Positions 1-54,845 of a stretch of 64,000 bases of DNA are shown here, piece by piece; the first letter of the stretch is position 1, and each line of letters begins with the position of its first letter. The notes beneath the pieces are model-generated. The model made no database searches. It was not told the origin of the DNA and worked only from the letters and a program-made list of their open reading frames with translations. Both the position numbers and the translations under genes were made by a program. The stretch comes from Lama guanicoe (lineage: Eukaryota): contig MU053933.1 in assembly GCA_013239625.1 (NCBI GenBank), positions 2,629,026 to 2,693,025 on the forward strand, read 5' to 3'.

Positions 1-1791
1 CCACATCGGGGATCTCAGCTGCACCGAGCAGGCAGGGAAAGGATGCTCTCCATGCCCTGCCCCTAGCCCCGCCACGAGCCCCTCTCGCCGCCTATAAGCC
101 CGGCTTCCAGCTGGTACGAGCGGAGGGCTTCGGACCGTTTCGTGCGGCTGCTTCCAGAACCAGTACTTTGTGTTTCCCGGAGCTGCGTCGTGAGTGCCCG
201 TCTCACACAGCCTCTGCGCTTGCCCCACACCACCTGCTTCTGGTCTTCGCCTCCGACCCGACCTCTCCTCCAGGCTCAGTCTGACCACCACACACCACAT
301 TCCCCCCGACCCTCCAGCCGAGAGGCCCCTCGAGCACCTGCATCTTCCCGAGGGCGTGCGGTGGCCTGGCACTGTGCCCACGTCCTACCTCCATTCAGAC
401 CTGGGGGAAATGAGCTTCATTACACCTTCCATAAGGGAGGTGCTAAAGCACACCAGTACGGATGGCGCAGTGAGCCCCGCGCGCCGTCAGCTAGCGTCAG
501 CAGGTGCCAGCCGGGGCGCCTCGGCCTCTCCCCCGCCCTGCAGTCTGTGATGACGAGCCCCAAGGACCATCCCGTCCGTGAGCGTCTCTGTGTGTGTCCC
601 TACCAGTGTGTGTCCCTGGAAGAGACGTGCTGTCTCCACACCGGCAAGGACTGAAAACAACCCCTTAGTACAGCCAGTTCCCCACACAACACTTGAATCT
701 CCCCGAGCCTGTCTGATTCCCTTCAGGTCCCTGTGGTAAGCAGTTCTGTGCTCTGTGTTATAGATTTTCAGAAACTACACCTTGGAGTAACTCAAAAATA
801 CAAAATGTTAATGCTTTTAAAACGTCTGGAACACTTTCTTGAATAAAGGATTCTAAATAGAAGCTCATTAAGCTTTTAGCAACGAATCTGCCAGCTATAC
901 AGTGAGAATTAGTGTTACTAACACATGATTGTCATGAAAACTGTGTCTTAGATGTCAGTTATGTGAGAAAGATGTTTCAGATACATGCACGTTTTAACAC
1001 ATGCTAGGCACTGTTTTGTATTATAAATCACTGGTTTTTAGTGATTTACAATAGAAACCTAACTTGCGTACCGAGCAGCATGTGCCTGCAGAACTCGGCA
1101 GTCTGCTGGAGTCCTTCACCGCAGGTCGCGTGCTAGTGCGGTCTTGCAAGGAGCGGCCGGAGTATTTAGGAAGAGGAAACTCTTTAATTTGTTAATGATG
1201 AAATAACTGGAGTAATTGTTCTCTGAGGGTTTCCTGTGGTTCTCCTGCCAACAAAATAGGTTGTATGTGGCTAAGAAGTTGGGTCAGATTTTAAGAATTC
1301 TACGCGTTTTAGTTTTGTCCATGAGACGCCCCTGCGGCTGAGAGGCGGAGTGACCACGGTACCTGTTTCTTCCTGCTCAGTAGCTTTACTTTATAACCCA
1401 CCCCAGTCTCCCCAGCACCCAGGTCGGCAAGTGGCTGGCGGTCTGGGCTCCGTCCTGGGGCGTCTTTCTGAGATGCACAGGGCGTTCGTTGCCTTCCCCT
1501 GGCTCGGAGCTCTGTACGGCCGCCACCCCTGGAGTGCAGGCCGCTCTCGCAGCGCCCTGAAGTCCTCCCTGCTGCAGCAGGGGCCTGGCCGGGACCCCGG
1601 GTCCTGACCACGCACAAGGGGGAGGAGCTTCCGGTCGCCCAGTCCGGAGGCTGGACCCACCCGCCCTTGTCTGAACAGCTTTCCACGGAGGGGACCCACC
1701 TCGTGTCACTCAGGGCTCAGTGCTGTGTTCTTGTTGTCTTTCAGACAGAAACAGCCTCCACCAGTCAAGAAGCTCCCAGAAGCGCCTTGCC

Positions 1792-1819
1792 ATGGACCTG
1801 GAAGATGGAGAGAACATGA
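1792..1819 (+). CDS. ADARB1: ADARB1 coding exon 1 (MDLEDGENM-S); exon begins at 1745
   Basis: Acceptor ttgtctttcag|1745, Kozak GCCATGG at 1792, donor ATGA|gtaaga at 1820; matches the human N-terminus MDIEDEENMS. Confidence 0.95.
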
Positions 1820-3569
1820 GTAAGACCTCGGCCCGCCACGTGGTCCCGAGCGCTGGTCTCCTGGGCAAGTCTCAGTGTGTGAGCGTGTTTAGCAGGGCCA
1901 GTGTGACACAGGCTGCTGACAGCGGCGTGTGTCCGCTTCGGGCTGGTGTCTGCTGTGGGCGTTCCCTCACGGCCGCTTGTCGGGGGTACTCGCCCTTGTC
2001 ATCAGCCGGGGCCGCGATGTGCGTGCCTCCCGCTAAGTCACGCGCGGTCCCCACAGTAGCAGCCGGCTTTCTCCCGTGGCCCTGAGGTTGGTCATGTGGG
2101 ATAACAGTACGTAAGCATTTCCCTTCAAATACGCTGGGTTGTCCCTGTGTTTTGAGGGAAAGGGCCCATGTGAGTCTGCGGATCTTAAGTTTCTGAAGAC
2201 TTAATGAGCCTTAGGGCTGGTGTGGCCTGAAACTCCCTGTCCCCCCTGGGGCAGGGGGGGCAGAGGGGACAGAGGGCCTCAGCTTCCCCTCGACATAGCT
2301 CTCTGTGGAAAGTTCCGTGGGCGAGCTCCCCTGCTCCGCCTCTAGGTCTGGACGGCAGAGCAGTCAGGGAAGGAGTCGGTGCTGCCGCAGGGCAGGGGCG
2401 TTTAGTGGGGGCAGCACGGCAGGGGCACCAGGGCTCTGATTTGTGCACGTGCATGCCGGGCTGTCCCCGGGAAGAGCGTGCGGGTGTGAAGGACAGGTGA
2501 CATTTTACTGAGCGTGTCCTCGGGGACTAGGACGCAGCTCAGTCCCTTTCCCTGTGGCCTCACCCCAAATGCAGCAGTGGAGGCCCTGCAGGCGCTGATC
2601 TGCACACACAGCCCACTTCTCCGGGAGAGCGTGCCGCCTGGCGGGCCGCTGCGAGCCATGTGCTGCAGCTGCTGGGCCTGTCAGGGGCCCGCACCGTACG
2701 CGCCCTCCGGCTGGAGCCCGTCCCTGGGACACGGCGTGGGGAGCCGTGAGTAGGTGCTGCTTCGGGCCTGAGGCCGTGCCCCTGCCAGCATGTGCTGGGC
2801 GCCCCCCCAGGGGCAGAGCTCCTCTTGGGCTCTTCAGGACCAGCCCCCCCACCAGTCCCAGTTCACCCAGCACTGCTCCTCCTTTCTGTCAGGCCTGTGG
2901 GCTGCTGTCCATGGTGGGGGTCATGGTCTGGGTGGAAGCTTCCCGGTGTGCAGATGGTGTAACCATCGCCAGGGCGACCTGCTGGTAAGTGACCTCGATA
3001 GAGAATCCTTCCGCATGAGGTTTCTGGAAAGGTAAGCCGCCGGTTCCAGGGCTGCAGCTGAAACGCCTGGCCTGTATCTTCTCATTTTGAAAGCAATGGA
3101 ATATTTTGTCGTGATTAACATCCGCATTTGTGAAGTAAATTAGCGTGGTCTGTAAGGAGGAGGCTCCTGCTTAAGAACAGCTGTGATGGTGGGGTGTCTT
3201 TGTCCAGTTCTGTATTTTATCTTCCTTGACATAGAAGCATTTTAACAAGGTAGAATGTGAGCTTCTGGAGCAAAGAAGAACTTGGAATCCATGTGAACTA
3301 TGCAGAATAGAAAGTGTGCGTATAATCTCAAGGTCCCTTGTCAGTCAGTGCTGATTGTTTTCACTTAAAGGAAAGCACGTGTTTCAGGGATTACAAATAT
3401 TTGACTAAACGCACGTCAGGACATGCTTACAGCGATGCGCTTTCCGCTGCCGATGCTTCAGCGACATCGGGACAGAAGCTCTTGTCTAGTGCGTGGTGTT
3501 GCTGCTCGTTTGCTAATCTAAACTCTGTCTTGCTCTACCCTTTCTAACTTTTTGTTTCCTTTGAGCACC

Positions 3570-3668
3570 GAAAGGAGTAACCTATTGAGCTTTTGCTGGA
3601 GGATGTTATAAATGAAAATTTAGTGTCCATTCCATCAGCTTTGTCAACTGGGAGAAGTGGTGTGTGTG
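3570..3668 (+). promoter_or_regulatory. Editing-complementary sequence (ECS) for the auto-editing site
   Basis: Colinear imperfect reverse complement of about 5072-5168: gaaaggagtaac/gttactctttc, ggatgttataaatgaaaattta/taaattttgcatttacaagatcc, ctttgtcaactgg/ccagttacaaag, aagtggtgtgtg/cacacatcactt. Confidence 0.92.
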
Positions 3669-5133
3669 TCAGGAGGGCTGGGGAGGAACGAAGTCCACAG
3701 AGAAAGCTTGTCAGTCTCCTAGTCTCTGCCACAGCGTGGACTCAGCTTTCCCACGGGGGGTGCTTGGCCCAGGGTTTTTCTGTGCGTCTCAGCTGAGCAG
3801 CGACAGCCCTGGAAGCCAGGGCACTTTAACTGGGGCCTGGCAGCTGATGACCCTGACAGGCTTCCTGCCGCGTTAAGCCCGCCCTCCCCTGGGTACAGCT
3901 GACGAGCATTTTCACAGTAGTGTTCCAGTTTCCTTCACTTGATGAGAGAGAATCTTCTTTTATTTCTGCGGTAGAAGTAGACCCTAGAGCCACCACATGG
4001 TGGTGGTAACTTGTAAATTAGTCTACAATTGTAAAAAATATTTTGGTTGATTAAAGATTTACTGCGGATTTTTGAAAGCCAGGTCTTTAAATACTTTCAC
4101 ATCAGCAACATTGTGAGGCCCTGGAGCCGTGCCCCCACGCTCATGGGCAGACGGCCCCCCATGCGGACTAACCAGAGGCAAGGAATTCGTTCCTTTTTTT
4201 AAAAGTTTGATAAACTTGAAGGAGTTAAGTTTTTGAAATTAAAATCATACTTATTTTGCCATGGACTTTTAGAGTTCTGAAGTTATCTTTATTGGTCGTA
4301 AAAAATCAAATACCCTTAAAAGATAAGGCAACCAAATTATTCTGTAAATCCGTCAGATATTTGTTTCAAACAAAAGACAAAACTGCCAGCTGTAGTCAGG
4401 AAGTTAGGAAGTCCTAAACACTCCAGTTTTCGTGTCTTCTGTATTTTTTCTATCGTGGAGTGTATTAACTATTCGGAGGTGAGTCAACTCCCATACGTAA
4501 TGAAAAAATCCTAAGTGAAAAAGTTCACTTCACTAGAAGTGAAGCTGGATCCTTTAGAAGTAACTTCTAAAAGGCCAGAACATTTTACATAGTCACATAA
4601 GCAGTTTTCTAAGATTGATCCATGAACTAAATCAAATAACTGCACATGTTGATTGAATATTTTAAACCAGAGAAAGACATTAACTTGTGAATGCGTGTTT
4701 TAGATGTTGTTTCTTTTCTGGGACATGCTGCAGTGTAAAGCCCCGTGTGAGTACAGCCTGAGGGAAAAGGGCTTTGCAAAGGAGGGAAATGCGAAAGGAA
4801 AGCGCACATATATCAGCACTGATGCTAGACTTACTAATGCAGGGTTTCTGGATCAGTTTATTATCCCACATTTTGATAAACTGGCATAACGTCTCTAGAT
4901 GCTTCAGAATATTCTCATAGAAAAAGATCATTTAAAAATTCATCTTTTAATGCAAAAGCAGTTGGCGACACTCAATAGAGCCAGCGTTAGGCACTGTTTA
5001 GCAAGACGTCAGCTTCCTCCTTTCAGCTTAGCTGGCTTCTGGGGGGAGTGGCCGCCGGGGGGAGTGCATGAGCACACATCACTTGACCAGTTACAAAGAC
5101 AGATGAAGGAATCTATAAATTTTGCATTTACAA

Positions 5134-5180
5134 GATCCTGCAACGAAGGCGTTGTAAGTTACTCTTTCTGGGCACCGCAG
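5134..5180 (+). promoter_or_regulatory. ADARB1: Editing-dependent 47-nt extension of exon 2; A5133 is the -1 auto-editing site (AA->AI acceptor)
   Basis: tttgcatttacAA|gatcctgcaacgaaggcgttgtaagttactctttctgggcaccgcag: the AA lies exactly 47 nt before the canonical acceptor, as described for rodent and human ADAR2. Confidence 0.93.
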
Positions 5181-6121
5181 GTTCGAGCACAGATGTTAAG
5201 GAAAACTGCGGTCTGGACGGCGCGCCCCCCGCGGACGGCAGCGCCCCGGGGCCGGGCGAGGGTGCCCCGCTCTCCAACGGGGGCGGCGGGGGCGGCGGGG
5301 GCGGCGGCAGGAAGCGGCCCCTGGAGGAGGGCAGCAACGGCCACGCCAAGTTCCGCCTGAAGAAGCGGAGGAGGGCGCCGGGGCCGGCGCTGCCCAAGAA
5401 CGCTCTGATGCAGCTCAACGAGATCAAGCCCGGCCTGCAGTACACGCTGCTGTCGCAGACGGGGCCCGTGCACGCGCCCCTGTTCGTCATGTCCGTCGAG
5501 GTCAATGGGCAGGTGTTCGAGGGCTCCGGCCCCACCAAGAAGAAGGCCAAGCTGCACGCGGCCGAGAAGGCGCTGCGGTCCTTTGTGCAGTTCCCCAACG
5601 CCTCCGAGGCCCACCTGGCCATGGGCCGGACCCTGTCTGCCAACACGGACTTCACGTCCGACCAGGCCGACTTCCCCGACGCCCTCTTCAACGGCTTCGA
5701 GACCCCAGACAGGTCGGACGCGCCCTTCTACCTGGGCTCCAACGGCGACGACTCCTTCAGCTCCAGCGGGGACCTCAGCCTGTCCGCGTCCCCCGTGCCC
5801 GCCGGCCTGGCCCAGCCCCTGCTGCCCATACCCCCGCCCTTCCCGCCCCCGAGCGGGAAGAACCCCGTGATGATCTTGAACGAGCTGCGCCCGGGACTGA
5901 AGTACGACTTCCTGTCGGAGAGCGGGGAGAGCCACGCCAAGAACTTTGTCATGTCCGTGGTGGTGGACGGTCAGTTCTTCGAGGGCTCGGGGAGGAACAA
6001 AAAGCTGGCCAAGGCCCGGGCCGCGCAGTCTGCCCTGGCGACTGTCTTTAACTTGCACTTGGACCAGACCCCGTCTCGCCAGCCCATCCCCAGCGAGGGC
6101 CTTCAGTTACACTTACCACAG
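5181..6121 (+). CDS. ADARB1: ADARB1 exon 2: N-terminal basic region/NLS, dsRBD1 and dsRBD2
   Basis: Acceptor ccgcag|GT TCG AGC ACA GAT GTT AAG. Encodes [25 protein letters not shown]...[13 protein letters not shown] and [13 protein letters not shown]...[13 protein letters not shown]. Donor CAG|gtgagg at 6122. Confidence 0.98.
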
Positions 6122-9100
6122 GTGAGGAAAGCCGCTGGCAAACCTGGCGTGTCTCAATAATGCTTTTACACAGGATCTGACCTCCTTCCTCCTGTGTCCT
6201 CCGCACAGGTGCTTCCTGGTAAGTCCAGCTGCCCGGCGGCCTCTCCTTGAGCGCGCCGCTCCTGTGGTCGCTGGGAAGCCCGCCCAAGGCTGCAGGGTGC
6301 AGCCTGGCCCGGAGGGGCGGTCGGGGCCCTGGAACCTTGCCCAGCTCAGCGGTGCCCTCCCTCGGGGCCTCGTGTGAAGTCCCAGGTGCAGGCTGGGTGA
6401 GGCTGGCCAGGCAGCGGCTGAAGCCCAACTCTGGGTCAGGGACTGAGCCCAGCAGGACTGAGGCTCAGGAGGCTGTCCAGGCAGAGGCTGGGCCACAGCG
6501 GTGGGGAGCACGTGTCAGAATGGCTAGGGGCACCAGGGCCCTCCACGAGCACCCCGGCGCCCACTCCTGGAGCCCCCACGGCGGGTCCCGGCGGGTCCCC
6601 GGAGCGGGTGTGGCTGTCCAGGTTGGGCTCGGAGGGAGAGGGAAGGAGAGAGCTTTTCAGCACCCCAGAACTCTCCCACGGCTTGTTGCTTCTCTTCCCG
6701 GAATTCCAGAATTATTCTGGTCTATTGAAGGACTCTGCCTTCAGGGAGACAGTCTAACCCTCCATTCCTTCCTGAGTAATATCTCAGTCTGAAGATGAGA
6801 TACACACTGGCCTGGTTGGAGCGTACGTGGGACGCCCGGCCGGCAGGAGGGCTGCCTCCCTCAGGAGGGCCCAGACCCTCTCGGGCCTTTGTGTGCAGGG
6901 GCCTCTGTGCAGGGGTCACCTCAGAAGGCCCACAGTTCTCAGTCTGAACAGAAGGAAATTGATTTTATTTTGCCTAAAGCAGCCAAATGCAGCATGAGTA
7001 CAAAGTAACACATCCAAAGTATATTACTGATTTTTTATGAACCAAATAACCGCTTCCCACGTTAACCTCTTGTTGACATTGCCCCCAGGAACTCTTGGTC
7101 CATTGTAATTTTACAAACGGGTGGCGCTCGTTCCCAAGTGATTTGTTATTCTCGGGTCTACCATTTGCCACATATTTCAACCTGAGTTCAGAATAACGTC
7201 CAATGTGACGAGTCTTCCCTCACATCAGCAGTTGTCTGCAAGACAATTGGAGTCATACCAAGTGTCACGAACCCCACGTCCTGGGCGGGGACCGCCGCGC
7301 TGGTCTGTGTGTGTGCGTGCACGTGTGCGTGCGCTCACACGTGTGCACGCATGTGTGCTGGCGGCCGCTCCCAGGCCTGGCTGTGACTTCCCTGTGGAAC
7401 AGCGCCCGGGCTCCTTCCCTGGGGCCCAGTGGAGCTGGCTGGGGAGGGCTCTTCTGAAATCCAGCTGACCGGGAGGGTGTGGGCCAGCAAGGGCTGCTTC
7501 CTCCCTGCCCAGTGCCACGTGCCCCTGCTCCACGTGCCCCTGCTCCACAGGCTGCACTGCAGTTTCTGGAGCTCAGCAGTCCAGGGAACCCCACCCCCCT
7601 CTGCTCACAGTGGCCCCCAGGTCCCCCAGGGTCCCCGTGGTAGCTCGGGGTGAGGTTACGTTTTCCCTGGAGGACTCGCGGGCGGCCTTCAAAGGATCCG
7701 GCCTTGCGGCTTTATTTCTGGGCTCCACTGCCTCCCCACTGGGGATTTCCAAAGGTGCAACCTAGAGTGAGTGAAAGGTCCTCCTGTCTTCCTAGGGGGC
7801 CCTTGGAGGACGTGGGTTGCCTGTCCCTGGTCTTAGGATGTTTGCCTTTCTAGTGTTCACGGCGGCTTTAGCAGGTTTAAAAATCAGACGATGTTGCCCG
7901 CGTGGTGAGCACAGAGCACTAGGTCAGTGAATTTGATTGACGTGGCCCGGCGCTCCGTCATGCAGGGTGCAGCCTCGAGCCAGGGCCCCCGCCACCCATG
8001 TCAGGCCGGGAGGGGCGGTGGGTGGCGTGGGTTTGACTTGTGCTGCTCCCTGCGCCCCAGAGTCCGCAGGGAGAGCCTGCCCGGTCCCCTCGGGGTGGGA
8101 GGGCGGTCCGACGCTGTGGGCGTCCATCAGCGCAGGCTCCGCCCCAGCGGAGGGTCCGACTCGGGCTGAGCTCGGCTGCCCTTCTCTGGGAATTCGGAGC
8201 CACGTCTAAGCTTGTGTGGAGCAGACACCTGTTTCCTCTGCTTTCCCTTCACCTCTTGCTGTTTCTCCTTCTCTGTCGACTGGAAGGCTGCGTCCCCTCT
8301 CCGGTACCCTCGCCATCGTGCTGCCACGTGCCCATCCTCTGCCTGCGTGCTCACCACCTTCCCGGCTCACACTGGGTGCAGAATGAGGTCCCCGGGCCCC
8401 GTCCCCGGGTCTCTGTCCACATCCCAACTTCTGGGGCTCACTGGTACCTGCTGGTGCGGTGACGGGGAAGGGTACTCTGACAGCTGCGTTCTTCCTAAAA
8501 AGGCACCATTTAGGACGAGCAATTTTTCTCTTGGTTTTATTAAAGGCCCCGCAGGGGGCCCTTGGTTTGGCCGTTAAATTCTCCAGACCAGTGTGGGAGG
8601 GCGGGCGCGGGTCCTCACGCACCTCCCCTCGGACATGACTTCCCCGCGCGCCCTGGGCCCTCACACCCAAGGTGAATCGGAGGCCGTGCAGTGGGCACGT
8701 CCGAGGCTGACAGACACGTGTGCTTCTGAGCAGCTCTGCCCGTACCGCAGGGCGCCAGCTGAGCCGCTCCAGACGCCCCCTTACACTCTCCCTTTACACG
8801 TGTGGCCTCTGCGCACACGCCCCATGTCACTGGATCTAAGTGACAGGTGCGCTGCAGGCTCTGACAGTGCTGGTTCCGAGGACCGAGCCGGGTAACTAGT
8901 TTTAGATGTTGAAATAACTGGGACACATGGAAAGGGCCCCTTTGGGAGGCAGGTGCTGTGAGCCTGGTGACTAATGTGATCACTCTTCTGGCCGCCCCTT
9001 TCTCTGCCTGTGGTGTCACTGGGAGGACAAGCTCCCCGTCGGGCCAGCCCTGAGCTGGCCGGGCAGCACCTCCTGTGGTGTCACGTCCTCCTGAAGCCCC

Positions 9101-9380
9101 GTTGCTCAGGGAGTGTGGCCCCAGGGCTCTCGCCCTGACTCGGAGCAGCAGGGGGCTGGAGGCAGGTGACCAGGAAGGCGCTGTCGCCAAGGGCCGGGCT
9201 GCTGTGAGGGCGCCTCCCTGCACGGGGCCTGGCTCCCATGGCCCGGGCTCTGGACTGGCCCCTCTGCAGGGACCCTCTCCCACCCCTCAGGTGTCTGTTT
9301 GCAAGGAGTGTTTGGGAGGAAAAGCACGGGCGCAGGGAACTGGCCCTAAAGGGAGCGCTAACCCCCTGCTTGGTCCTCAG

Positions 9381-9495
9381 GTGTTAGCCGACGCCGTGGC
9401 CCGCCTGGTTCTGGATAAGTTTGGGGACCTGACGGACAACTTCTCCTCCCCTCACGCGCGCAGGAAAGTCCTTGCTGGAATCGTCATGACGACAG
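9381..9495 (+). CDS. ADARB1: ADARB1 exon 3 (VLADAVARLVLDKF...VLAGIVMTTG), start of deaminase domain
   Basis: cctcag| acceptor, ACAG|gtaact donor, 115 nt, phase-consistent. Confidence 0.97.
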
Positions 9496-11314
9496 GTAAC
9501 TGTGCTGGCGGTGCGTCTGCCCGCCTGCCCTCACGCTCAGCAGGGGAATCGCCTCAGCCTGGAACAGCCCCGGGACGCCGGCGGGCAGTGCGTCCGCCCT
9601 CCTTCGGAGTGCCCGCCGCGTGCTCTTACGTGTTTTCCTGAAAGTTCGTCTCTCTAACCTAAGCTTTCCCACTTGGAGAAAGCACTGTGTGTTGATATGA
9701 GCCCTGCGATCTTCTGGGAGTGGTCTTGATCTGCTCCGGAAAACTGCAGGAGGCCCCTTGACTCTTGCCTCATTCGAGAGTAGGACATGGCGGGTTTGCC
9801 AGTGATGCTGACGCTGCCAGATCGGCTCCCGGGTGGCTTGGGTGGGGAAGGGAGGGCCCTCTAGCAAGAGCAGAAATCGGGAAAACATGCTTTGGGATGG
9901 CAGAAGCCCTGTTAATGTTTGCCCAAAGATCCCAGCAGCAAAGGAACCCTCCCGCGTCCCCGCCCCACTTCCCGGGAGCCAGCCCTCTGAGCAGCGCCCC
10001 GTGGGTCGGTCCGACAAACGGGACCCACAGCCGTGGCGGGTGCCTGGATCCCGGGGCGGGCAGGCCCCCCATCACCGTGGGGGATGAGTCTGGGCCGTCA
10101 CGCGGGGCCTCTCTTCCTGGAGCATCCACTCGGCCCCGCTGGCCGAGCCTGGACGGCCACGCACAGGAAGCCGCCCAAGAGGCCAGAGGGCGGGCTCCAG
10201 GAGTGGCTGCTCTGTCTACACCCGCTGGCCAGGGGCCCAGTTCTCCATGTAGGTGGCTGCCTTGTCCTTTCCCTGAGGTGCGCTCACCTGTCTGACCGTG
10301 ACAGGAGTGGCCCTGTGACGTTCAGTGCATCCCTGAGGCCCTGGGACACGGCCGCCGCGTGCTCGCCCTGCCCATCTGTGCTCCGGCACAGCTAGAGCAT
10401 GTCACGGGCGGGGTGGGGCGCTTTTGTGTTCCGATGTCCACTGCCTGGGTTCCCGTGTGCCCGCTGCCTCCTGCGCGGTGACCGCTTGCACAGGCAGGAC
10501 TGTCGTTCCCGGGCGAGGCCCTGCTCCCCTCCAGCAGACTGTTTTCATTCGGGTTTGACAGCCTCAGAAGGGGCACCTCACGTCGGGGGGCACGATGCAC
10601 CGCAGGGTGTGTCTCACTTGGGACCATCTGCTCAGAGCCACGATTTACACCTGAAGCACTTGGCGTGGCATCAGGCGGCCTGGTTCCAGTCCCAGAATGG
10701 ACTGTGACCACCCTATGCCACGGTTCCCTCATGCGCAGAGATAGGAGGGGAACGGGCCTCAGAGGGAGGACGCTGGGGCTGAGTGAAATCCTGCCCAGCG
10801 GGCTGCGCGGTCACCGCCCTGTAGCCGCAGGGCCTGTGTGTGGCCTGTGGACCCCTGACCGTCAGGGGGGTCGCTTCCCGGAAGCCCCCAGTGCTGGTGG
10901 GCCTCCCAGTGCAGCTAAATGGTGAGAGGCCCCTGAGCAACACCTGAGTTACCCTGGGCCCATTCTCCGGCCCCCTTGGTGCTTTGGTAGTTTCGAGGTC
11001 AGTCACGGCCAGCCTGTCCACCTCTCCACGGAGCTCCCCACCCGAGTCCACGGGGACTGTGCACGGAAAGACTTGCGTTTCGAGGAGGCTCCTTTCTTAA
11101 GTTTAGAATCTTTACACTAAAGAGTCAGGAGGGTTAGCTTCCAGAAATGTGGCAGAGCACGTGCTCAGTGGGAGGCCGTCATGGCGGCCGGGAGGGGTCA
11201 GCGGCTGCGTGAGGATGCTGCCGTCTGCCCCTGCACTGCACCCCCAGTCCACGAAGGTGCGTGTCCTGCCCTGAGGCCCGGGTCCCCGAAGCATGACTTC
11301 TCTCCTGTTTCCAG

Positions 11315-11792: not shown

Positions 11793-12179
11793 GTAGTCAC
11801 GGGTGTCGCCTCTGGGTTCGGAGCACGTGCTCGTGTTCTGTGCGGCGTGAGCGTGGCTGGAACTGAGCTGCCAGTGGGGGGGTCAGTTCTGTGCTGGTGA
11901 CCATGCCCGAGCCGCTTTTCCCCACGAGCCGTTTCTTTTGTGTCGTCTTCGTGGCCGGCAGCCGTGGACGAGCAGAGGGAACGGTCGCTCGCGTGCTGAT
12001 GGCGCGTCCTGTCAGCAGACAGGAGCCATGTTGCTTGTTAACATATAAAATAAAGAGCCCAGTTCAGGCTGAAACCCCCCGTTTTAACACTGGCCTCTGA
12101 AAGTCACTGTGAGCTGTGCTAGACTAAACTTTCATTGTCAACAGCTTTGAGATTTATTTTGCAACTTGTTTCCTTTCAG

Positions 12180-12328
12180 TAACAAAGATGATCAAAAAAG
12201 ATCCATCTTTCAGAGGTCGGAGCGCGGAGGCTTCAGGCTGAAGGACAGCGTCCAGTTCCACCTGTACATCAGCACCTCCCCCTGCGGCGACGCCCGGATC
12301 TTCTCGCCGCACGAGCCGCTTCTCGAAG
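12180..12328 (+). CDS. ADARB1: ADARB1 exon 5 with the Zn ligand in STSPCGDARIF
   Basis: cctttcag|T AAC AAA GAT; donor GAAG|gtgggc; 149 nt. Confidence 0.97.
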
Positions 12329-13348
12329 GTGGGCTCGGCTTCTGGCGGCCGGTGCTCCCCCAGAGGACCGTGCGGGCAGAGCGACCACCATCAGTGCCCT
12401 TTGTGGAGATGCCCACCTTGAATGTGGATCTGATCAGAATGTATAAAAACAGGAGGTTTTTCTTGCCAGCAATTCAGTTAGAAACTGTTAATGACGAGAA
12501 TGCAGATTCTGATAAATTAGGAAGTTAGACTAGACTCGAGAATATTGGACCAAAATTGTTTTCACTGTTTAAACGTGGGCGACGCAGGTCTCTGAGCTGG
12601 GAGCAAGCAGCCCCCTCCTGTCTCTGATGAGCTGTGAGAGCGTGTGCGGCTGCGGGCCTGGCCTTCCACAGCGGCCGACCCGGGAGGCGCCAGCACGCTG
12701 CCCTCCGCCCCGCTCTGCTCCCATTCTTGTCGGGGCTTTTGTTTGATGGCTGTTTGTACCCACAGCCCTTCCCACAATCGCAAGCATTATTTATTCCAAA
12801 AAGAACATTTGATTTCATTATTTTTCTTGATTATCAAAGCAACGCATACCCACTTAGTGAATTGCTAGACATTTTTAAAACATAAGAAGGGAAATTTAAC
12901 TCACCCCGTATCCGTGTAACCCAGAGATAATGGCTCTGGGTGTTTGTGAACGCGTCCCGTGGGTCCACTTCTGCTGCCCCATAGACGTATTGCTGGAAAC
13001 TTAACTGTACGGGGAAGAAACACGGCAAACCCCCGCACGTCCATCGCGCAGAGTGAGCAACGGCTGGCATTTTGTCCTGTGCGCTCGGCTCACCTTCAGT
13101 GATAGACAGATCGTTCGGGTGAGGTGGAAGCCGTCCTTCCCCAGCCCCTGAGGGGCCCCTTTCCCGGCCTTGGTGTGTGTTGCATCGTCCTGTTCAGTTT
13201 TGTGTTCTCAGATGGCAATGCGTGTCTTCCGTGCGCACAGGGTAGGCGTGCACACGGGTGTGACTGGCAGCCGTTGTTAGATGTGCTTCTCAGTGAGGTG
13301 AGCGACGGCGGCTGTGGCGGAGTCTCTCACCCTGTGTGTCTCTTGCAG

Positions 13349-17960: not shown

Positions 17961-19844
17961 GGTCGATGGGCAGGTGCCAGGCCAGCTGACCTGTGTCTCA
18001 CAGGGGCCGGGCCGTGGGCTCAGGTGAGAAGGGAGGTGCCGCCTGTCCATCCAGCGGGCAGCGTGGCTGAGATGTGGCACGGGAGCTGCATGGGGCACAG
18101 CGATGGGAGGGGCCTGCAGGGACCCACCAGCTCTGCTGGGCCATGAGAGGGAGGGTCCCAGCCTCCAGGCTCTGGGTGCACCCCCACCCCCAGGGCTGCA
18201 GCTTGGCTGTTCAGAGCTGCAGGGGGAAAGGGGCTTCCACTGTGCTGGGGGTAGGCTGGGGTCAGTGCAGGGAAGCCGGATGGGGGTGAGGCAGCAGGAC
18301 CTGCTCTGAACCCCGTGCTCCAGAGGTAACGTGTAAGGAAGGGGAGAGCAGGAGGCCACTCGCGGGTCACGGGGTCGTGGGGTCGGCTGGGCAGGGGCGC
18401 AGCACCCCCTGTGCCGGCTTCCAGCTTTGCCTGGGGGCAGTGGCTGCCTGAGCACGCCCTGTCGCCATCACTGCCCAGCCCTGCTGGGTCTTTCTCCCGG
18501 GGGAGTCTCGCCCTCACCGTCGCAGGGCTCGCTGGCGGGAGGCGTGCCCTAGCGGTTCCATCCCAGGGCCTCCGCAGAGCGGCCCGGCTCCTGGCTCCTC
18601 CGACAAGGCCTGTGTTCGGCATCTATGGCTTGTAGCAACACAGGCTTCTGTCAGATCACGGCTCTGAAGGTTCCCCGGGCGGCTGCTCTCAGCTCCTGAC
18701 TTACTTGAGAAAGCGACCCGTGTACTTTGCAAGCGCTGAGTTGTCTCCTGCTTTCTCACTGGGCAGGAAAACCAGGTTTTGATGTCGTTGTTGGGGAGCG
18801 GGAGGCCTGGGCTGTCGGAGTCAGGACTTACCGCCCGTTCAGCATGTATTTGCTGCTCTGCGTGTACCAAGTTGCGGCTCCAGTGAATTAAACAGAGACC
18901 CTCCTGTGTGGAGCTTCTGTACTTGGGCGGGTTTGAGGGGGAAGTTTTGCGGGAAGTTAGCCAACCGATGTGGGGGCCAGTTTGGCTCAGGTGATGGCTG
19001 CAGACGGAGATGGGGGCGCTGAGGCCAGGGACTGTCTGGGGACTGTGTTCCAGGGTGAAGGGATGGTGGTCAAGGTCCTGAGGGAGCAGAAGGAGCCCCG
19101 CGGCCGGAGCCTGGGGGAGGGGCGGTGGCAGGAGGCAGGGAGCCGGGGAATGCCAGGTCAGACAGGCTGGCGGGGACTGGGATGTGTCGTTTGGGAGGAA
19201 GATGGGGAGTGTTGGGAGGTTTCGCACTCAGAGTGGCCTGTCCTGCCTGGGCTGGGCCCTGGGGGCGGGGGCTGTGGTCACCGGATTGCCCTTGGGAGGG
19301 GCGGCGAAGTGGGCAGGAGGTGACCTGACCCGGGATCAGCAGAGGCAGTGGCACCAGCAGCCCCTGATCTGTTCTGAGAGGAAGTCCCGAGGCTTGCTGG
19401 CCGCTGGCCTGCGACAGGGATGGGGAGGCGGCCGTGGTCCCAGCCATTTGGCTTGAGCCAGAGCGCGGGCTGACCCCCTCTCGGAGCAGGAAGCATCAGT
19501 TCCCATCCACAGGGGCTCCCTTAGAGCTCCCATCTTTATTAACGTAATAAAATAGAGATTTACTTCTCCGTTTGATTTCCCTTAAGAGAAACGTGGCTTA
19601 TTGACACCTTTTCCTAACTGATCTTCAGTAAATGGTGTCGTCATGAGAAACACAGACCAAAGATCGTTCCAGCTCTAGATGACTTTTAAGCAGGTTTTTC
19701 TTTTTAAAATGTTTAGCTGCTGAGTCACCTGTTTCCTCTTTGAATGGCTGGCACGTGCACAAAACGCCCAGCACGTCGGTGTCAGCGCGGTGGGGTGGTG
19801 AGCCCGAGGCCGCCCGCACTGAGCTCCTGTCCCTGTGCCCCCAG

Positions 19845-20026
19845 GTGGAACGTGGTGGGCGTCCAGGGCTCCTTGCTCAGCGTCTTCGTGGAGCCGATCT
19901 ACTTGTCCAGCATCATCCTGGGCAGCCTGTACCATGGGGACCACCTCTCCAGGGCCATGTACCAGCGCATCTCCAACATAGAAGACCTGCCCCCCCTCTA
20001 CACCCTCAACAAGCCTCTGCTCAGCG
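19845..20026 (+). CDS. ADARB1: ADARB1 exon 7 ([11 protein letters not shown]...LNKPLLS-G) ending in a GC donor
   Basis: ccccag|G TGG AAC; only the junction AGC G|gcaagt keeps frame with exon 8; 182 nt. Confidence 0.95.
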
Positions 20027-20491
20027 GCAAGTATCTCCGTGGCCTGTGTCCTCTCCCCACGGACCTGGTTTGCGGCGTGGAAGTCTTAGGAGCACAGTTC
20101 TGGGCGGGGGCAGCTGCCCTGTGGCGGGCGCTGGCCGTTCTGAAGGGCAGAGGCAATGGGTCATTTAAGGGAGTCCCTCGGGGTTACTGTCTCTTGCTGA
20201 CTGAAAACCTTGCCGTTTACGGGGAAATTACAGCCCAGGTCCTGCACCTCCGTGCGGCCCGTTCACCCATCCTTACGTCTCAGCCGTAGAGGCTCACAGA
20301 TGCCAGCCATGAGGGTTACGCAGGCATCGGCCGCCCTCGCTTAAGCTGGGCTGGGCCTCGCGGGACAGGCGCCCACGGCGGTGAGCGGGCCGCCCGGAGG
20401 AGGCCGGTGCTGCAGCGCGTGCCGGGACAAGCGGGCGACCACCCCCAACTCCGTGCCCTGTGTTACCGGTTGTTTGTTGTTTTTCTTCTAG

Positions 20492-22804: not shown

Positions 22805-25800
22805 GGAGAGATCAGGATGTGGGAGGAGATGGTGTGGAGCTCACCTCCCGCCACGGACACATCAAAAATCCATCCGCCTGTGGGAAGATTCTCATGGAGA
22901 GCCAGCCGGACGCTGACACGGGACTCCTGCACAGCCAGGGCGAGGCTGCGAGGAAGGTACCCACGGAATCGGCAGAATGGGAAGAAAAGCACCGGGGCAG
23001 GGCCTGCACTCACGGGAGGGGGCTCCCAGGAAGGGGGAGGTCGCTTCCCGGGAAAGGGGAGGGCACAGGGGCGGACCTGCCCTGGGAGACAGCGGGTGGA
23101 GCCGCAGGCTGTGTCCGCTGTGCAGGAGGCAAGGCTGGCTGGCCGCTGGGAGAGCCGGGGGACAGACAGAAGGTGGGAGAAGCCTGGACTAAACTCTTGA
23201 GGAGGACACGGTGCTGGCTGAGCCCACCCAGATGGAGAGAGGTCTGCCCAATGCGCTGGCCCTGCTCGCTCCACGCCACACCTTGGCACTGGACCCAGGG
23301 CGGCCAAGATCGGGGAAGAGACTCCATGTAGGGACGCAGAGGCGACTCAGAGGCCTGGGGTGGGGCCCAGGCAGGGTGATGCGGCCGCTGTTGGAGCTCA
23401 CCCAAGCAGTGCCCCAAAGCAGCCCAGACTTCTGACGGCAGCGCGGCCACCTGGACTCCCACGACGGCCTCGCCAGGCACCCCAGCCCAGGCTGAGCGAG
23501 GGCTCCAGCCCCACCAGCTCCACGCACGTCACAGCACTAGGTCATGGGCGGCCACGCAGTGGAAAGAGGAGACCGAGGGCTGCACCTGAGCGGAGCCGCA
23601 GACGCCCACACAGGCGGCGCTCTGGACCTCTGTGAGTGCACGAGCCCCTCTGCTTCAGCCGTCCCCTCCTTCGGGGCAGAGACCCCAGTGTGAAGAGCAG
23701 AAAAAACACACGTAAAGGGAACAGATACTGACCGGTGTATATAAAATAGACAAACAAGTTCACACTGTATAGCACAGAGAAATATATTCAATATCTTACA
23801 GTAGCTTATGGTGAAAAAGAACATGAAAATGAACATATGTATATTCACGTATGACTGAAGCGCTGTGCTGTACACCAGGAATTGACACAACATTGTAAAC
23901 TGGCTATAACTCAGTAAAAAAATAAATAAGGGAACACAGCCAGCTTGAGCACATTTTTCAACCACAATGGTATGAAACTAGAATAAAAACGGGTAAAGAA
24001 CAAACACATAGAGACTAAACAACAAGCTACTAAAAAGCCAGTGGGTCAACAATGAAACCAAGGAGGAAATCAGAAAATACCTCGAGACAAATGAAAGTGG
24101 AAACACAACTTTCCAAAATACGTGGGATGTTCCAAAAGCAGCTCAAAGAGGGAAGTTCACAGCAATACAGGCCTTCCTCAAGAAACAAAAAAATCTCAAA
24201 GAAACAACCTAACCTACCATTTAAGAAGATTAGGAAAAGAAGAACAAAGCCCCAGGTCAGCAGAAGGAAGGAAATAATAAAGATCGAAGAGGAAGTAAAT
24301 AAAATAGAGGTTAAAAAATAAATAGGAAAGACCAGCAAAACCAAGAGCTGGTCTTTTGTACAGAAGAAAGAAAAAAGATAAACCTTCAGCCAGGCTCACC
24401 AAGAAGAAGAGAGAGAGGCCTTAAATAAACAACATAAGAAACGAAAGAGGAGCACTAATAACCAATACCACAGAGATACAAACGATCATAAGAGAACACT
24501 GAGAACAGTTACATGCCATCAAACTGGACAACCTAGAAGAAGTGGACAAATTTCTAGAAATGTACAGCCTGCCAAGACTGTCAAGAAGAAACAGACAATT
24601 TGAACAAGACCAATCACTAGAAGTGAAATTGATTTGTAATTAAAAACAAAAACAAAAACAAAAACTCCTAGCAAACAGAAGTCCAGGACCAGATGGCTTC
24701 ACGGGGAATTCTACAAAATGTATAAAGAAGAATTTATACCAATCCTTCTCAAACTATTCAAAAAAGTTGAAGAGGGTGGAATACGCCCAAATTTATTCTA
24801 CAAGGCCACTGTTACCCTGATACCAAAACCAGACAAAGAAACTACAAAAAAGAATATTAAGGACCAATATCTTTGATGAAAATAGATGCAAAAATCATTA
24901 ATGAAATACTAGCAAGCTGGACTCAACAATACATAACAAGGATCATATACTGTGGTCAAGTTAGATTCATCCCAGGGTCACAAGGATGACACAACATATG
25001 AAAATCAATCATTGTGATACACCACATTAACAGAAATAAAGATGGAAGCCATATAGTCATTTCAATAAACACAGAAAAAGAATTTGATAAAATTCAATAT
25101 CCATTTATGATTAAAAAAAATCTCTCATTAAAGTGGGTGTAGAGGGAACATACCTCAACATAATAAAGGCCATTTACAACAAACCCACAGCCAGCATAGT
25201 ACTCACTGGTGAAAAACTGAACGCCTTCCTGCTAAATTCAGAAACAAGACAAGGACGCCCACTCTCACCACTCCTATTTAACATAGTATTGGAAGTCGTA
25301 GCCACAGCAATCAGACAAGCAAAAGAAATAAAAGGCATCCAACGTGGAAGGAATGAGGTAAAACTGCCACTGTCTGTAGATGCCACAACACTCTATACAG
25401 GGAGTCCTACAGTCTCCTCCCAAATACTGTCAGATAATAAGTGAGCTCAGCAAGGCTGCAGGACACGTGATCACCACACAGAAACCTGCTGCATTGTACA
25501 CTACAATGAACATCAGAGAGAGAAAGTAAAAAAAAAAAAATTCTGTTTAAAATTGCATCAAACAGAATAAAATACTTAGTAATAAACGTAACCAAAGAGT
25601 TAAAAGACCTAAACTCTGAAAACTATAAAACACTGATGAAGGAAATTGAAGGTGATACAAAAATATAGGATATCCTGTGTCCTTGGATTGGAAGAATTAA
25701 TATTGTTAAAATGGCCATAGCGCTCAAAGCAGTCTGCAGATTTAATGCAATCCCTACCACTATTCATGCCGTTTTTCACAGAACTAGAACAAATAGTCCT

Positions 25801-26360
25801 AAAATTCATATAGAACCACTAAATGCCCCAAAGTGCCAAAGCAATCCTGAGAGAAAAAGAACAAAGCTGAAGATAGAACCCTCCTGGACTTCAGACTGTG
25901 CTACAGAGCTGCAGCGGTCAGCGCAGCTGCAGCGGTCAGAGCAGCATGGTGCTGGCGCAGACACCGGCTCATCGCCCAGTGGAACAGAATAGAGAGCCCA
26001 GACACGGACTGATGCGCCTGCGGTCAGTTAACCGGTGCCAGGGAGGCGAGAATACACAGTGGAGGTAACACAGTCCCTTCAGCAAGTGGTGCCGGGAAGA
26101 CTGGGCAGCAGCGTGCACGTCAGCGAGGCACAGCGCTCCTTTGCACCGCACACTGAAGTAAGCTCAGAATGGTTTAACGACCTAGTGTAAGACCTCAAAC
26201 CATAAAACTCCTAGAAAAAAACATGGGCAGAACACTCTGACAAATTGTAGCAGTATGTTCTTGGATGTATCTCCAAGGCAAAAGAAATAAAAGCAAAAAT
26301 AAACAAACGGGACCTAGTTAAACCTAAAAGCTTTTGCACAGCACAAAGGAAACCATTGAC
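22805..26360 (+). mobile_element. Decayed LINE-1: 5'UTR-like segment (about 22805-23700) and ORF2 remnant (about 23945-26360); ORF1 not recognisable
   Basis: ORF 25133-25444 [21 protein letters not shown]...[17 protein letters not shown] is L1 reverse transcriptase; A-rich sense strand; many stops and frameshifts. The 5'UTR assignment is less certain. Confidence 0.9.
23715..23936 (+). mobile_element. Short 5'-truncated L1 3' tail with A-tail and 9-bp target-site duplication
   Basis: aagggaaca at 23715-23723 and 23928-23936 flanks gctgtacaccaggaattgacacaacattgtaaactggctataactcagtaaaaaaataaat, a cetartiodactyl-type L1 3' end. Confidence 0.85.
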
Positions 26361-29934: not shown

Positions 29935-32900
29935 GCTCACATGCGTACTGCCAAAATGGGTTAGTTTGCATTTTCTAGGATTGTACAAGAATCATGAGAT
30001 GTGTGCTTTTTTGTCTAGCGTATTCCATCCAGCATGATGTCATTATTTTGCGATTCCTCCATGTTTGCTGTCTGTCGGTGGCTCGTTAGCCCTTGTCATC
30101 GCTGCGTCACGTTCCGCTGTGGGATCAGCCAGTCTGTTCATCCAGCAGCTGTTGACGGTATCTGGCAGTTTCCAGTCTTCTACTGCCTCAGGCGAAGCTG
30201 CCGAGAACGCCCGTGTGCAAGCACCTCTCCTGTAAACGCCGGGGGGTGGGAAGGCTGGCTCATGGCTTGGGTGTGCGTTGAGCTTTTTAAACACTGCCAC
30301 ACTTTGCCTAGGCGGTTGTACCATTTTCCCCTCCCACCAGCACTGCCGGAGCGAGCCAGGTCCTTCCCACCCCGGCCAGCACTTAGCGTGGGCAGCGGTT
30401 TGGGACATGCTGATGGCTGTGGTGTCACACTGGTTCTAGCTTGTACTTCCCGCGTGACTGACGGACGTGAGCTTCTCTTCGTGTGCTGGTGCCATCTGTG
30501 TGACTTCTCCGATACATTGTTCAAAACTTTTCACGTTTCTTACTACTGAGTTTTGAGAGCGACTTACATACTCCGGATACAAGTCCTTTATCAGACATGA
30601 TTAGAAACGTTCGTCTTTCTGCTCTCTCAGCAGGGTCTTTCAGAGACCAGATAATATTTTGATATGGATAAAATTTCTGATAAAATTCTGTTTATCAGTT
30701 TCTCTCTGTTGGATCATGCTTTTGATATTGTAGCCAAGAAATGTCTGCCTGAGTCTGTGTCACAAAGATTTCTCCCTATGTTGTGTCCTTAGAAATTTTA
30801 GTTTCAGTTTTTGCATTTCGGACTAGACTCCATTTTAAGTGAAAGTTTGTATAGACGTGAGGTGTGAAGCTCATTTTGTAACATATAAGATAATTGTTCC
30901 AGCACCATTTGTTGAAAAGTGCCACCTTTACCGAACTGCCTTTGCACCTTTGTCAAAAATCAGGGCTTTTTCAGTTTATATTTTAAAAGACCAGCTTGCA
31001 TGTGTATGTTTAGGTCTGGTTTTGGACGCTGGTGTTTTCCATTCATCTCTTGTCTGTCTTGAAGCCAGTATCACGTCATGATAACTGTAGTTTCATTGTA
31101 AGTTTTGAGATCAGGTAGGGTTAATCCTCCAGCTCTGTACTTCTTCAAAGTTGTCTTGGCCACTTAGGTCCTTTTTGCATCTTCATAACAATTTTATAAT
31201 CAGCTTACCGGTTTGTTCATAGAAGCTGGCTTGGATTCGGCTGAGATTGTGCTGAACATGCAGGTCAGCCGGGGGAGAACCAGCATCTCGGGGTTTTGAG
31301 TGTTCAGGTGACGGAGGCCGAGCGTCTCTGCGTTTACTCGGGTCTTGCGCTTCCTCACGGGCCGGTGCTCCCTGGTTGACAGCACCCCCACCTTACACGT
31401 CTGGTCAGATTTAGCTCCAGGTGCTTCCTAGTTTTGATGCTCTTTTGAAGGCTGTACTCCAGCTTCCAGTCGTTCACTGCACGGACACCGAGAGAGCGCT
31501 TACAGCAGCTTTTCTGCAGATTGGACTGAAGCTGCTCTCTGTGCGAGCCTGTGGCTCATGTTTTCCCTCTTCCTGCACATCTGGGCGCCCTTGACTTCTC
31601 TCTCCTTCCTGCGCCTGGGCGGGCCTGCAGCGCAGGGCCGGGCCGACTCGGTCAGAGCCGCCGGCCTGTCCCGTGTGCGGCCTCGGGGCAGGCACGCAGC
31701 CTCACCCGGAAGTATGACGCAGCCTGCGCACTTTTCCTTTTCATGAGTTTAAGGCAATTTCCTTCTAGTCCTAACTTGCTAAAGGGTTTAAGTCAGGAAT
31801 TAATGTTGGGTTTTGCCAGATGCTTTTTTTCTACTTTATTGAGATGATCATTTGTGGAGTTGTTGTTTTTTTTTTTAAGTTAATGTGACATTGATTGATT
31901 TCTTTAAATATTAAACCAACCTTGCCTTCCTAGAGCAACTCTAACAGTCATATGTATTACTCTTTTTATACGTTGTTGGATTCAGTTTGCTAAACTTTTG
32001 TTTTTATGGTGTTTTTATGAATTTTTGCTTCTGTAGTACACTGGTCTGTGTGGATGTTGGTCTCTAGTTTTGGGGAGGTTTTCAAAAAATTTCTTTGTCA
32101 GGTTTTGGCATCAGGATAATGCTGGCTTCATAAAATGAGCTGAGAATCATTTCTTCCTCTTCTGTTTTCCAGAGAAATTTGTTTAGATTTGATATCAGAT
32201 TTTTCCATCCGAGCCTAAAGGATTTTTTGTGAGAAAGTATCTACAAATTCAGTTTCTATAATAGATACAGGGCTATTCATGTGATCTATTTGTTCTTGAG
32301 TGAGCTTTGATGATTTGTGTCTTTTAGGGAACTTCTCTGTTTCATCTAAGTTGTTGAATTTATTGGCAAAAAAGTGTTCATGACATTCATGTACTGTCCT
32401 CTTCGTGTCTGTGGGGGCTGCAGTGGTAGCTCCTCTTTAATTTCCTGTATCATGATTTGTGTCTTCTCTTTTTCCCCTATCAGTCTAGCTAGAAGTTTAT
32501 CAATTTTACTGATTTTTTTCTCTTAAGGACCAACTTTTAGTTTCATTGATTTTTTTTCTGCTGTTTTCTATTTTTCTCAACGATTTCTGCTCTAATCTTT
32601 ATTATTCCCTTTTTTCTGCTTTATGTTTTGATTGCTTTTCTTTTTCTAGTCTTTAAGGTGCTAGTTGAGGTCATTGTTTAGAGACCTTTCTTTACTGATT
32701 TCACAGCATTTCACAAATGTTGATACGTTGTGCTGTTATTTTCATTCATTTTGAAATACTTTGTCTCATGGGTTATTTAGAAATCTGCTATTTAGGTTCA
32801 AAATACTAGGACATTTTTACAGAGATCTTTCTGTGCTAAATTAGTTTCAATTTGTGACTTGAGTCCTTTTAAATTTATTGAGAATTGATTTAAGGACCAG

Positions 32901-34560
32901 GGTGTGATCTTTGTAAGTGTCCCATGAAAACTTGGGAGGGACGTGTGTCTGCTGCTGGGGAGAATGTCCCGTCAGCTGTCAGTTAGATCAGGTTGATCGA
33001 CTGTGTCATGTGCATCTTCTGTGTCCATGGTGATCTTCTGCTCAGCCTGTCAGTTGTTGAGAGAGGGTGCTGGGAATCTCTTGGCTGTAATTCTGCTTTT
33101 GTCTATTTCTCTTTCCAGTTTTTTTAATTTTTGCTATTTTGCAGCTCTGTGATTAGGTACAAATTTAGGGTTGTTGGTTCCTCTTAATAAACTGATGTCC
33201 TTTTTCATTATAAAATGGCCTTCTTTATCTCTGGTAATTTTGAGTTGTGGCAGCACAGTATCTGTGCCCATACTTTTATTTAAAACTATTTTATACTATT
33301 TTATGTTGAAATTATGTTTCTTGTAGGCAGCATGCCTTTGGATTTTGCTTTTTCCCACCCCAGTTAACATCTCTGCCTTTTCAGTGTGGTACTTAGGCCA
33401 TTGACATTTGTTGTGGTTATTGATACGGTTAGGTTTGAATTTGTCATCTTGCTGCTTATTCTCTATTTGTCCTGTATGTTCTTTGTTCCCTTTTCCTCTC
33501 TTTCGTACATCTTTTTGCATGAATTGAGTCTGTTTTGCCTCTCTAACTCCTTCTAACAAAAGCTGGGACTTTTTGTTTTGCGGCCTTAGCTGGTACATTA
33601 GGGCTCGTGGTCTGCACCTCCTGCTTCTCACAATCTGCCTTCCAGCAACGCTGGACCATTTCGTGTTCAGTGTGAGAACCTCACAAAGCGCATTTCCATT
33701 TCTGTCCTGCCCCTGTCGTGCTGTTGTCATCCATTTAGCTCTCACGCATGTTAGACATCCCGCACTGCTACTTTTGTTTCAGTTGTCAGCTTTGGGGGAG
33801 GTTTACCGCTTCTGGCACTCCTCGCTCCTTTGTGTGGACCCTCACCTCCCTCTGCCTGCAGGACTTCCTCTCCCATTCCGCGCAGTGCGTGGCTTCTAAT
33901 GATGAATTCTTTCAGCTTTGGTATGTCTGAACGCATACTTAGTTTGCTTTCATTTTTGAACCCTATTTCCGGGGCACTGCTGGACTTCCTGGCACTTTAG
34001 AGATGCTGTTCCCCAGCCGTCCTGTCGGCACTGCTTCCGGTGAGACATCTTCGGTGGTCCGTGTCTTTGTCCCTCCGGGCTGGTGTGTCTTCTCCTCTGG
34101 CCATCGTGCTTTCTCTTGATGCTGCTGTGGAGCGATTTGTTATGACGTGCTTTGGCATGGCTTTTTGCACATTCCTTGTGCTTGGGCTTCACAGAGGTTC
34201 ATAGACCTATGGACTTACTGATTTCATCAAGTTCGGAAATTTTTTCAGATTTTTTCTGCAGATATTTTTTCTGCCCTCCTTTCTCTCTTCTCTCCTTCAG
34301 GAGCTCCAGTTGCACGTATATTGGGCTGCTGAAATTTGTCCAACAGCTCTCTGGTTTTCTGGGGTTTTTTTTTTCCAGTTCCTTTTTTCCTCTCTATTTC
34401 ATTTTAGACAGTTTTTGTTACTGTATCTTTAAGTTCACTCATTCCACAGTTTTTATTCTGTGGTTAATTCCATCAAGAGCATTTTCACTCAGCTGTGTGG
34501 TGGTTTTCATCTCTGCAAGTGTGTATCTTGTGTCTGTGTGTCCCATGTGGGTGCTGGGCA
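29935..34560 (-). mobile_element. Long old L1M element, antisense (3'UTR at left, ORF2 and ORF1 remnants at right)
   Basis: T-rich plus strand with L1 antisense words (ccagcaccatttgttgaaaag, ggttttggcatcaggataatgctggcttcataaaatgag); minus-strand peptide ENALDGINHRIKT is ORF1p-like. Confidence 0.88.
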
Positions 34561-36548: not shown

Positions 36549-36727
36549 GCATCAGCAACGCGGAGGCACGGCAGCCCGGGAAGGCACCCAACTTCAGTGT
36601 CAACTGGACTGTGGGCGACGCGGCCATCGAGGTCATCAACGCCACCACGGGGAAGGACGAGCTGGGCCGCGCGTCTCGCCTGTGTAAGCACGCGTTGTAC
36701 TGTCGCTGGATGCGTGTGCACGGCAAG
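36549..36727 (+). CDS. ADARB1: ADARB1 exon 8 (ISNAEARQPGKAPNFSVNW...RWMRVHGK)
   Basis: tgttccag|GC ATC AGC; donor AAG|gtactg; 179 nt. Confidence 0.97.
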
Positions 36728-40162: not shown

Positions 40163-40208
40163 NNNNNNNNNNNNNNNNNNNNNNNNNNNNNNNNNNNNNN
40201 NNNNNNNN
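40163..40208. other. Assembly gap (46 N) within the 3'UTR
   Basis: Run of N. Confidence 1.
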
Positions 40209-54842: not shown

Positions 54843-54845
54843 AGT

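Follow-up and report, generated by a model that had tools for sequence, protein, structure and literature searches.

A probable ortholog of the ADAR2 auto-editing element in the intron ahead of the dsRBD exon of a mammalian ADARB1 gene

The intron that precedes the dsRBD exon of the ADARB1 (ADAR2) gene described here very probably carries the ortholog of the ADAR2 auto-editing element, which combines a fold-back duplex, editing at the -1 position, splicing to an acceptor that adds 47 nt to the mRNA and negative feedback on the enzyme. The same switch is on record for zebrafish and for rat, mouse and human, so that what is seen here would be a known element's ortholog and no new mechanism. The gene lies on the plus strand of the stretch of DNA that was analysed, 64 kb in length and referred to below as the window; the exons, the intron and the arms described below are on this strand. 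An earlier note on the window had proposed the same interpretation, which at the level of sequence is supported, through orthology and conservation.

In the mechanism that we propose, an upstream arm of the pre-mRNA (3565-3667) would fold back onto the last part of the intron (5072-5173, at its 3' end), some 1.4 kb away. ADAR2 would bind this duplex and deaminate several adenosines, as in rat, mouse, human and zebrafish. By orthology, the enzyme would act chiefly on A5157 (+24, opposite a C), with +23, +10 and -1 edited as well. Editing of the -1 adenosine, A5133, would convert AA to AI, which the spliceosome would read as AG, and position 1819 would then be spliced to 5134 instead of 5181. 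The 47 extra nucleotides shift the frame, such that translation from the first AUG would end after 84 aa, giving a product with neither the dsRBDs nor the deaminase domain. With its stop codon upstream of many exon junctions, the +47 mRNA would probably be a target of nonsense-mediated decay. More ADAR2 activity would lead to more dead mRNA, and the outcome would thus be a negative feedback on the level of ADAR2.

The ADARB1 gene and the +47 cassette

The gene in the window is a compact, GC-rich ADARB1 of mammalian type, identified as ADAR2/ADARB1 by matches to the Pfam families dsrm and A_deamin. The coding part of the ATG exon (1792-1819, with the start codon at 1792) encodes MDLEDGENM plus one base and is followed by a GT donor at 1820-1821. 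The exon itself probably starts at 1745, after the sequence tctttcag. The ATG frame is open through 1745-1791, back to the acceptor at 1744 (ORF 1675-2085), such that an N-terminal extension from an upstream exon is possible; an extension of this kind is described for mammalian ADAR2 in an excerpt of PMC2626628. The intron with the putative switch comprises 3,361 bases (1820-5180), with gtaaga at its donor and ccgcag at its acceptor, and the reading frame is continuous across 1819/5181. When 1819 is joined to 5181 in this regular way, the translation is the ADAR2 N-terminus and remains open for 335 aa without a stop.

The exon on the far side of the intron (5181-6121, its end read from the sequence, with a GT donor at 6122) encodes the N-terminal region and both dsRBDs. 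It matched the PDB entry 2l3j_A (E 1.2e-140) and, in two stretches, the Pfam family dsrm (E 1.2e-28). The next acceptor after the donor that follows 6121, read directly, is at 9380/9381. Four further ORFs were tested against Pfam; three of them (12151-12525, 19744-20286 and 36332-36898) matched A_deamin, and the fourth (9054-9638) matched no Pfam family. The N-terminal region of the predicted ADAR2 contains a run of ten glycines (5315-5345, residues 43-52), the counterpart of which is shorter in L001, the vertebrate contig described below. A run of N at ~40150-40200, which appears as X in the ORF translations, is an assembly gap within the gene.

Elsewhere in the window, the blocks 45700-47700 and 54500-55400 are strongly G-skewed, with a GC skew of up to 0.84. 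Their minus-strand ORFs encode monotonous repeats rich in H, P, S and T, and the blocks look like degenerate tandem repeats. Two other blocks, 24000-26000 and 32000-34000, are AT-rich (GC 0.35-0.40). The ORF at 25115-25444 resembles, by eye, a fragment of a LINE-1 reverse transcriptase, and L1-like ORFs of this kind suggest that the host is a mammal.

The AA dinucleotide at the centre of the proposed switch is found at 5132-5133 (-2/-1), in the context ttacAAg, and would read as an AG acceptor if A5133 were edited to I. Its distance from the regular acceptor is that given in the earlier note: splicing to the proximal acceptor would add a cassette, 5134-5180, with a length of exactly 47 nt, and the exon begins at 5181. 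The adenosine at +24 (A5157) is the counterpart of the principal and most efficiently edited site in mouse. As offsets edited in rat, the note had listed -28/-27, -4, +10 and +23/+24, and an A is indeed present at each of these offsets. The same holds for all ten positions edited in rodents, namely the nine listed for mouse in an excerpt of PMC2777444 (-28, -27, -4, -2, -1, +10, +23, +24 and +28) and, in addition, +14, which comes from the rat sites given in an excerpt of PMC2694175 (-2, -1, +10, +14, +23 and +24).

Translation of the 1819 to 5134 join gives the frameshifted product that had been predicted, 84 aa ending in TPSSA, with the TGA at 5358-5360. This stop precedes the dsRBDs, and the loss of both of them and of the deaminase domain, also part of the prediction, follows from the sequence. 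The dsRBD1 profile match begins at about residue 81, and no methionine occurs between residues 9 and 86, the next in-frame Met being residue 86, inside dsRBD1. A rescue from Met-25 like that of rat would therefore not be available here. Of 24 public sequencing runs, seven RNA-labelled ones carry 0.25-0.37 of 460 sampled words of 1700-6200, a fraction that has no bearing on editing or on the junction.

Pairing between the two arms of the intron

The earlier note had described two intron arms that pair across about 1.4 kb, and this arrangement was recovered: the arms are 3565-3667 and 5072-5173, and 1,404 bases of loop separate them. The note had suggested a computation with RNAcofold, which for 3560-3700 and 5000-5185 returned a stable duplex of -135.3 kcal/mol, in which the arm duplex accounts for 83 pairs, 7 of them G.U. 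The 5' arm is the predicted ECS; the editing sites and the greater part of the 47-nt cassette are in the 3' arm. The predicted duplex is long and imperfect, and its ECS is intronic and lies upstream at a distance of over 1 kb. On the loop side, the cofold alone predicts an extension helix, with a GC-rich 5' half (3668-3695) and a 3' half at 5005-5036. The 5' half aligns poorly with L001 and the 3' half is not conserved there, so that conservation gives the extension no support.

Around the editing sites, the pairing is as the note had drawn it, both in the cofold and in the minimum free energy (MFE) structure of 1745-5400 (3,656 nt). A5133 is paired with U3606, while G3605 and G5134, and likewise A3608 and C5131, are mismatched, each unpaired opposite the other; A5157 faces C3582 as an unpaired A:C. 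In the MFE structure, the 5' arm has 83 of its 103 bases paired, and the partner of every one of them is in the 3' arm. Since the arm pairing is kept in a fold of this length, local structure does not, at least in the model, outcompete the long-range helix. The duplex also takes in the polypyrimidine tract of the regular acceptor (5158-5173), 15 of whose 16 bases pair with 3565-3581. The last seven bases of the intron (5174-5180), including the regular AG, pair locally in this structure with 5206-5212 at the start of the exon.

The strength of the pairing was compared with two backgrounds. The arm-to-arm energy is -91.6 kcal/mol, versus -36.0 +/- 5.3 when the 5' arm was dinucleotide-shuffled 200 times; the best shuffle reached -56.1, and none of the 200 reached -91.6. 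For the second, the 3' arm was paired with 3,172 sliding 103-nt windows over the whole 64 kb. Its best partners were the windows at 3561 (-83.2) and 3581 (-73.6), and the best unrelated one was at 16681 (-66.3), with a mean of -34.6 (sd 6.8) for all windows.

One argument of the earlier note did not survive in the form in which it was made. The AT-richness of both arms in a GC-rich locus had been taken as a sign of purifying selection. The arms do have a low GC content (0.417 and 0.402), but so does the loop (0.416), and AT-richness extends over the whole block 3050-5000, the flanks of which have a GC of 0.64-0.68. Composition therefore fails to single out the arms, and it was rejected as evidence for selection on them. 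Because AT-richness does not hold alone, the comparison across species takes its place.

Conservation of the arms and alternative readings

Relatives were sought by a protein-guided scan of metagenome contigs, which gave 321 candidate stretches and, from these, four loci (L001-L004). Only L001, a distant, non-mammalian-looking vertebrate contig, has the upstream intron of a close ortholog; it covers the whole exon and 2,045 bases upstream, and L002 begins inside the exon. The L001 exon is 73% identical to that of the window at the protein level and 72.9% at the DNA level. When 3000-6200 of the window was compared with L001 by blastn, two matches were obtained, one covering the exon together with the 3' arm (72.9% over 1,077 columns), and the other the 5' arm alone (3562-3667 against L001 1341-1447, 79.6%). 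Over the same range, no further blastn match in L001 was found for the intron outside the arms, and the loop is not alignable. In this one comparison sequence, then, the arms are conserved and the loop is not.

The 3' arm is the better conserved of the two, with 91 of its 102 bases identical in L001, as against 81 of 103 for the 5' arm (L001 1341-1447). In the stretch from -30 to +47 (5104-5180), identity rises to 75 of 77 bases, and within it the 47-nt cassette differs at a single position (46/47 identical). Both sequences have the same AA 47 nt ahead of the acceptor, with the same mismatches on either side of it. As aligned, the arms are conserved far above the level of the neighbouring coding exon; the near-identity of the core, as a sequence comparison, cannot separate a constraint on pairing from a constraint on splicing signals.

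The L001 intron also folds like that of the window, with an energy of -90.9 kcal/mol. The fold has 87 intermolecular pairs, and the -1 A (1998) of the contig is paired in it, with 1385 as partner. Among 325 partner windows, that of the 5' arm of L001 was the best (-68.6, versus a mean of -32.0 and sd of 7.2). The arms of L001 lie at 1341-1447 and 1937-2045, and its loop is 489 bases long, compared with 1,404 in the window. With such different lengths and nothing alignable between the arms, the length and content of the loop apparently evolve freely. When the 83 pairs of the window were mapped on L001, 68 were unchanged, 6 were kept despite a one-sided change, 1 was kept through a two-sided change and 8 were broken. 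The two-sided, compensatory change is from A-U to C-G at 3655/5084, and the broken pairs, as counted in the window's register, are mostly in the loop-side half (3622-3662). Covariation is thin evidence here, since a single sequence was available for comparison and it has changed so little.

Neither arm has a counterpart in L003 (56% identity) or L004 (43%). Both loci, the former at 3640-4723, are ADAR2-like and more distant, and they are without the ACAAGATCC motif. In L003 there is also no outlying duplex before the exon, the best pre-acceptor partner having a z of -2.7 among 541 windows. Exact-pattern scans with the 22-base core of the editing-site arm gave 0 matches in genome contigs and 0 in viral contigs. 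The element may be restricted to a subset of ADAR2 genes.

Other than auto-editing, a potential reason for the conservation of the arms is that the duplex acts mainly through its structure. In this case, sequestering the polypyrimidine tract or looping out 1.4 kb would tune splicing, and editing would be a by-product or a means of loosening the helix. The conserved block does span all 47 nt up to the acceptor, and the tract just ahead of the regular acceptor is almost fully paired with the ECS in the MFE structure. However, the AA and its flanking mismatches are unchanged in L001, and, in excerpts of PMC2694175 and PMC6101491, -1 editing is reported to create the acceptor and mice without auto-editing are reported to express more ADAR2. 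We consider a mainly structural role improbable; such a role would supplement the main reading and not replace it.

It is very unlikely, in our judgment, that this species has kept the element as a relic and scarcely uses it; the duplex would then form and might be edited, and the +47 form would be rare and of no regulatory weight. The inclusion of the 47 nt does vary widely by species, from ~80% in mouse brain to ~15% in human brain (PMC2694175, in excerpt), but an identity of 75/77 bases with a distant vertebrate, next to an exon at 72.9% and an unalignable loop, is hard to square with the absence of function in the lineage.

That the pairing is an inverted repeat arisen by chance, or stems from two transposable-element copies in opposite orientation, is scarcely credible: repeats are present elsewhere in the window and frequently give rise to long inverted repeats within introns, but no shuffle reached the observed energy, the arms were the best among the 3,172 windows, neither arm has a second copy in the window by blastn, and both arms are conserved in L001. 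The origin from a transposable element was rejected by blastn within the window (word 11, E 1e-3), where the 3' arm and 3050-5060 gave self-matches only, on both strands. At word size 11, blastn did not detect the arms themselves as an inverted repeat at the DNA level, which fits a helix interrupted by mismatches and G.U pairs.

Relation to known self-editing systems

Auto-editing at the -1 site in rat, mouse and human reportedly goes back to Rueter, Dawson and Emeson in 1999 and to Feng et al. in 2006. The zebrafish +47 transcript is said to have been described by Slavov and Gardiner in 2002, and Dawson 2004 is likewise said to be among the primary papers on ADAR2 self-editing. The mechanism that the earlier note had given for rodents agrees with an excerpt of PMC5852575, in which self-editing by ADAR2 converts an intronic AA to AI, creating a 3' acceptor and adding 47 nt. 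In human cells transfected with ADAR2, -1 editing also adds 47 nt (PMC6101491, in excerpt), and the +47 event is mentioned in PMC2626628 as well. The excerpted text of PMC2777444 gives +24 as the principal site in mouse, with >80% of transcripts edited in adult brain, and reports further mouse edited positions in the opposite strand, ~1,500 nt upstream, at -1476 and -1500.

The likeness of the window to the -1 site of rat, mouse and human extends to the gene, to the intron, which directly precedes the dsRBD exon, to an AA at a distance of 47 nt from the acceptor, to an arm ~1.4-1.5 kb upstream and to a frameshift that leads to a short dead product. With rodents, it also has in common the adenosines at all 10 reported edited positions. 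The differences are species-level details. The predicted product has 84 aa here, whereas that of rat and mouse has 82 aa and that of human 31 aa (PMC5852575, in excerpt). A rescue from Met-25 has been proposed in rat, and this residue is absent here; human also lacks it, and as in human, the next in-frame Met is in the first dsRNA-binding domain (residue 86 here, 84 in human, where the domain is termed dsRBM1; rat and human from an excerpt of PMC2694175).

In zebrafish adar2, a +47 transcript includes 47 nt of the upstream intron after editing of the preceding A, according to an excerpt of PMC4018279. The vertebrate contig L001 has the same cassette (46/47) and the same ECS as the window, with the shorter loop, 489 bases versus 1,404, as the difference. 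A more general likeness is to the Q/R and R/G sites of GRIA2, where an imperfect duplex of the edited site with an intronic complement recruits ADAR2 (PMC2694175, in excerpt). In those cases, however, the ECS is usually downstream and close and a codon is changed, whereas here the ECS is 1.4 kb upstream and an acceptor would be created. The auto-editing of insect Adar concerns an exonic recoding site and creates no splice site, in which it differs from the window. What it has in common is that the enzyme edits its own transcript, possibly with an auto-regulatory effect, as mentioned in PMC9479739.

In two respects the switch might depart from, or add to, the systems described. It is possible, though we hold it doubtful, that it is a stricter off-switch than in rat, given the missing rescue Met, and that the helix helps to set the ratio of the two acceptors. 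With the polypyrimidine tract (5158-5173) inside the helix, one may speculate that the structure itself weighs on the choice of acceptor. Structure and inosine, in such a model, could act together on splice-site choice.

The ADAR2 element is a textbook case in which editing creates a splice site and the editing enzyme limits its own level. The present finding very probably adds one species to those with this ADAR2 self-editing switch, which is already described from fish to human, and it has little importance beyond annotation. For the gene models of this species, it means that a +47 isoform should be included and not dismissed as erroneous. The strength of the constraint is evident from L001, with 75/77 bases identical next to a coding exon at ~73%, and a loop that has gone from 1,404 to 489 bases and become unalignable. 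Within this framework, the species would join a long dead peptide of the rodent kind (84 aa) with the absence, as in human, of a rescue Met.
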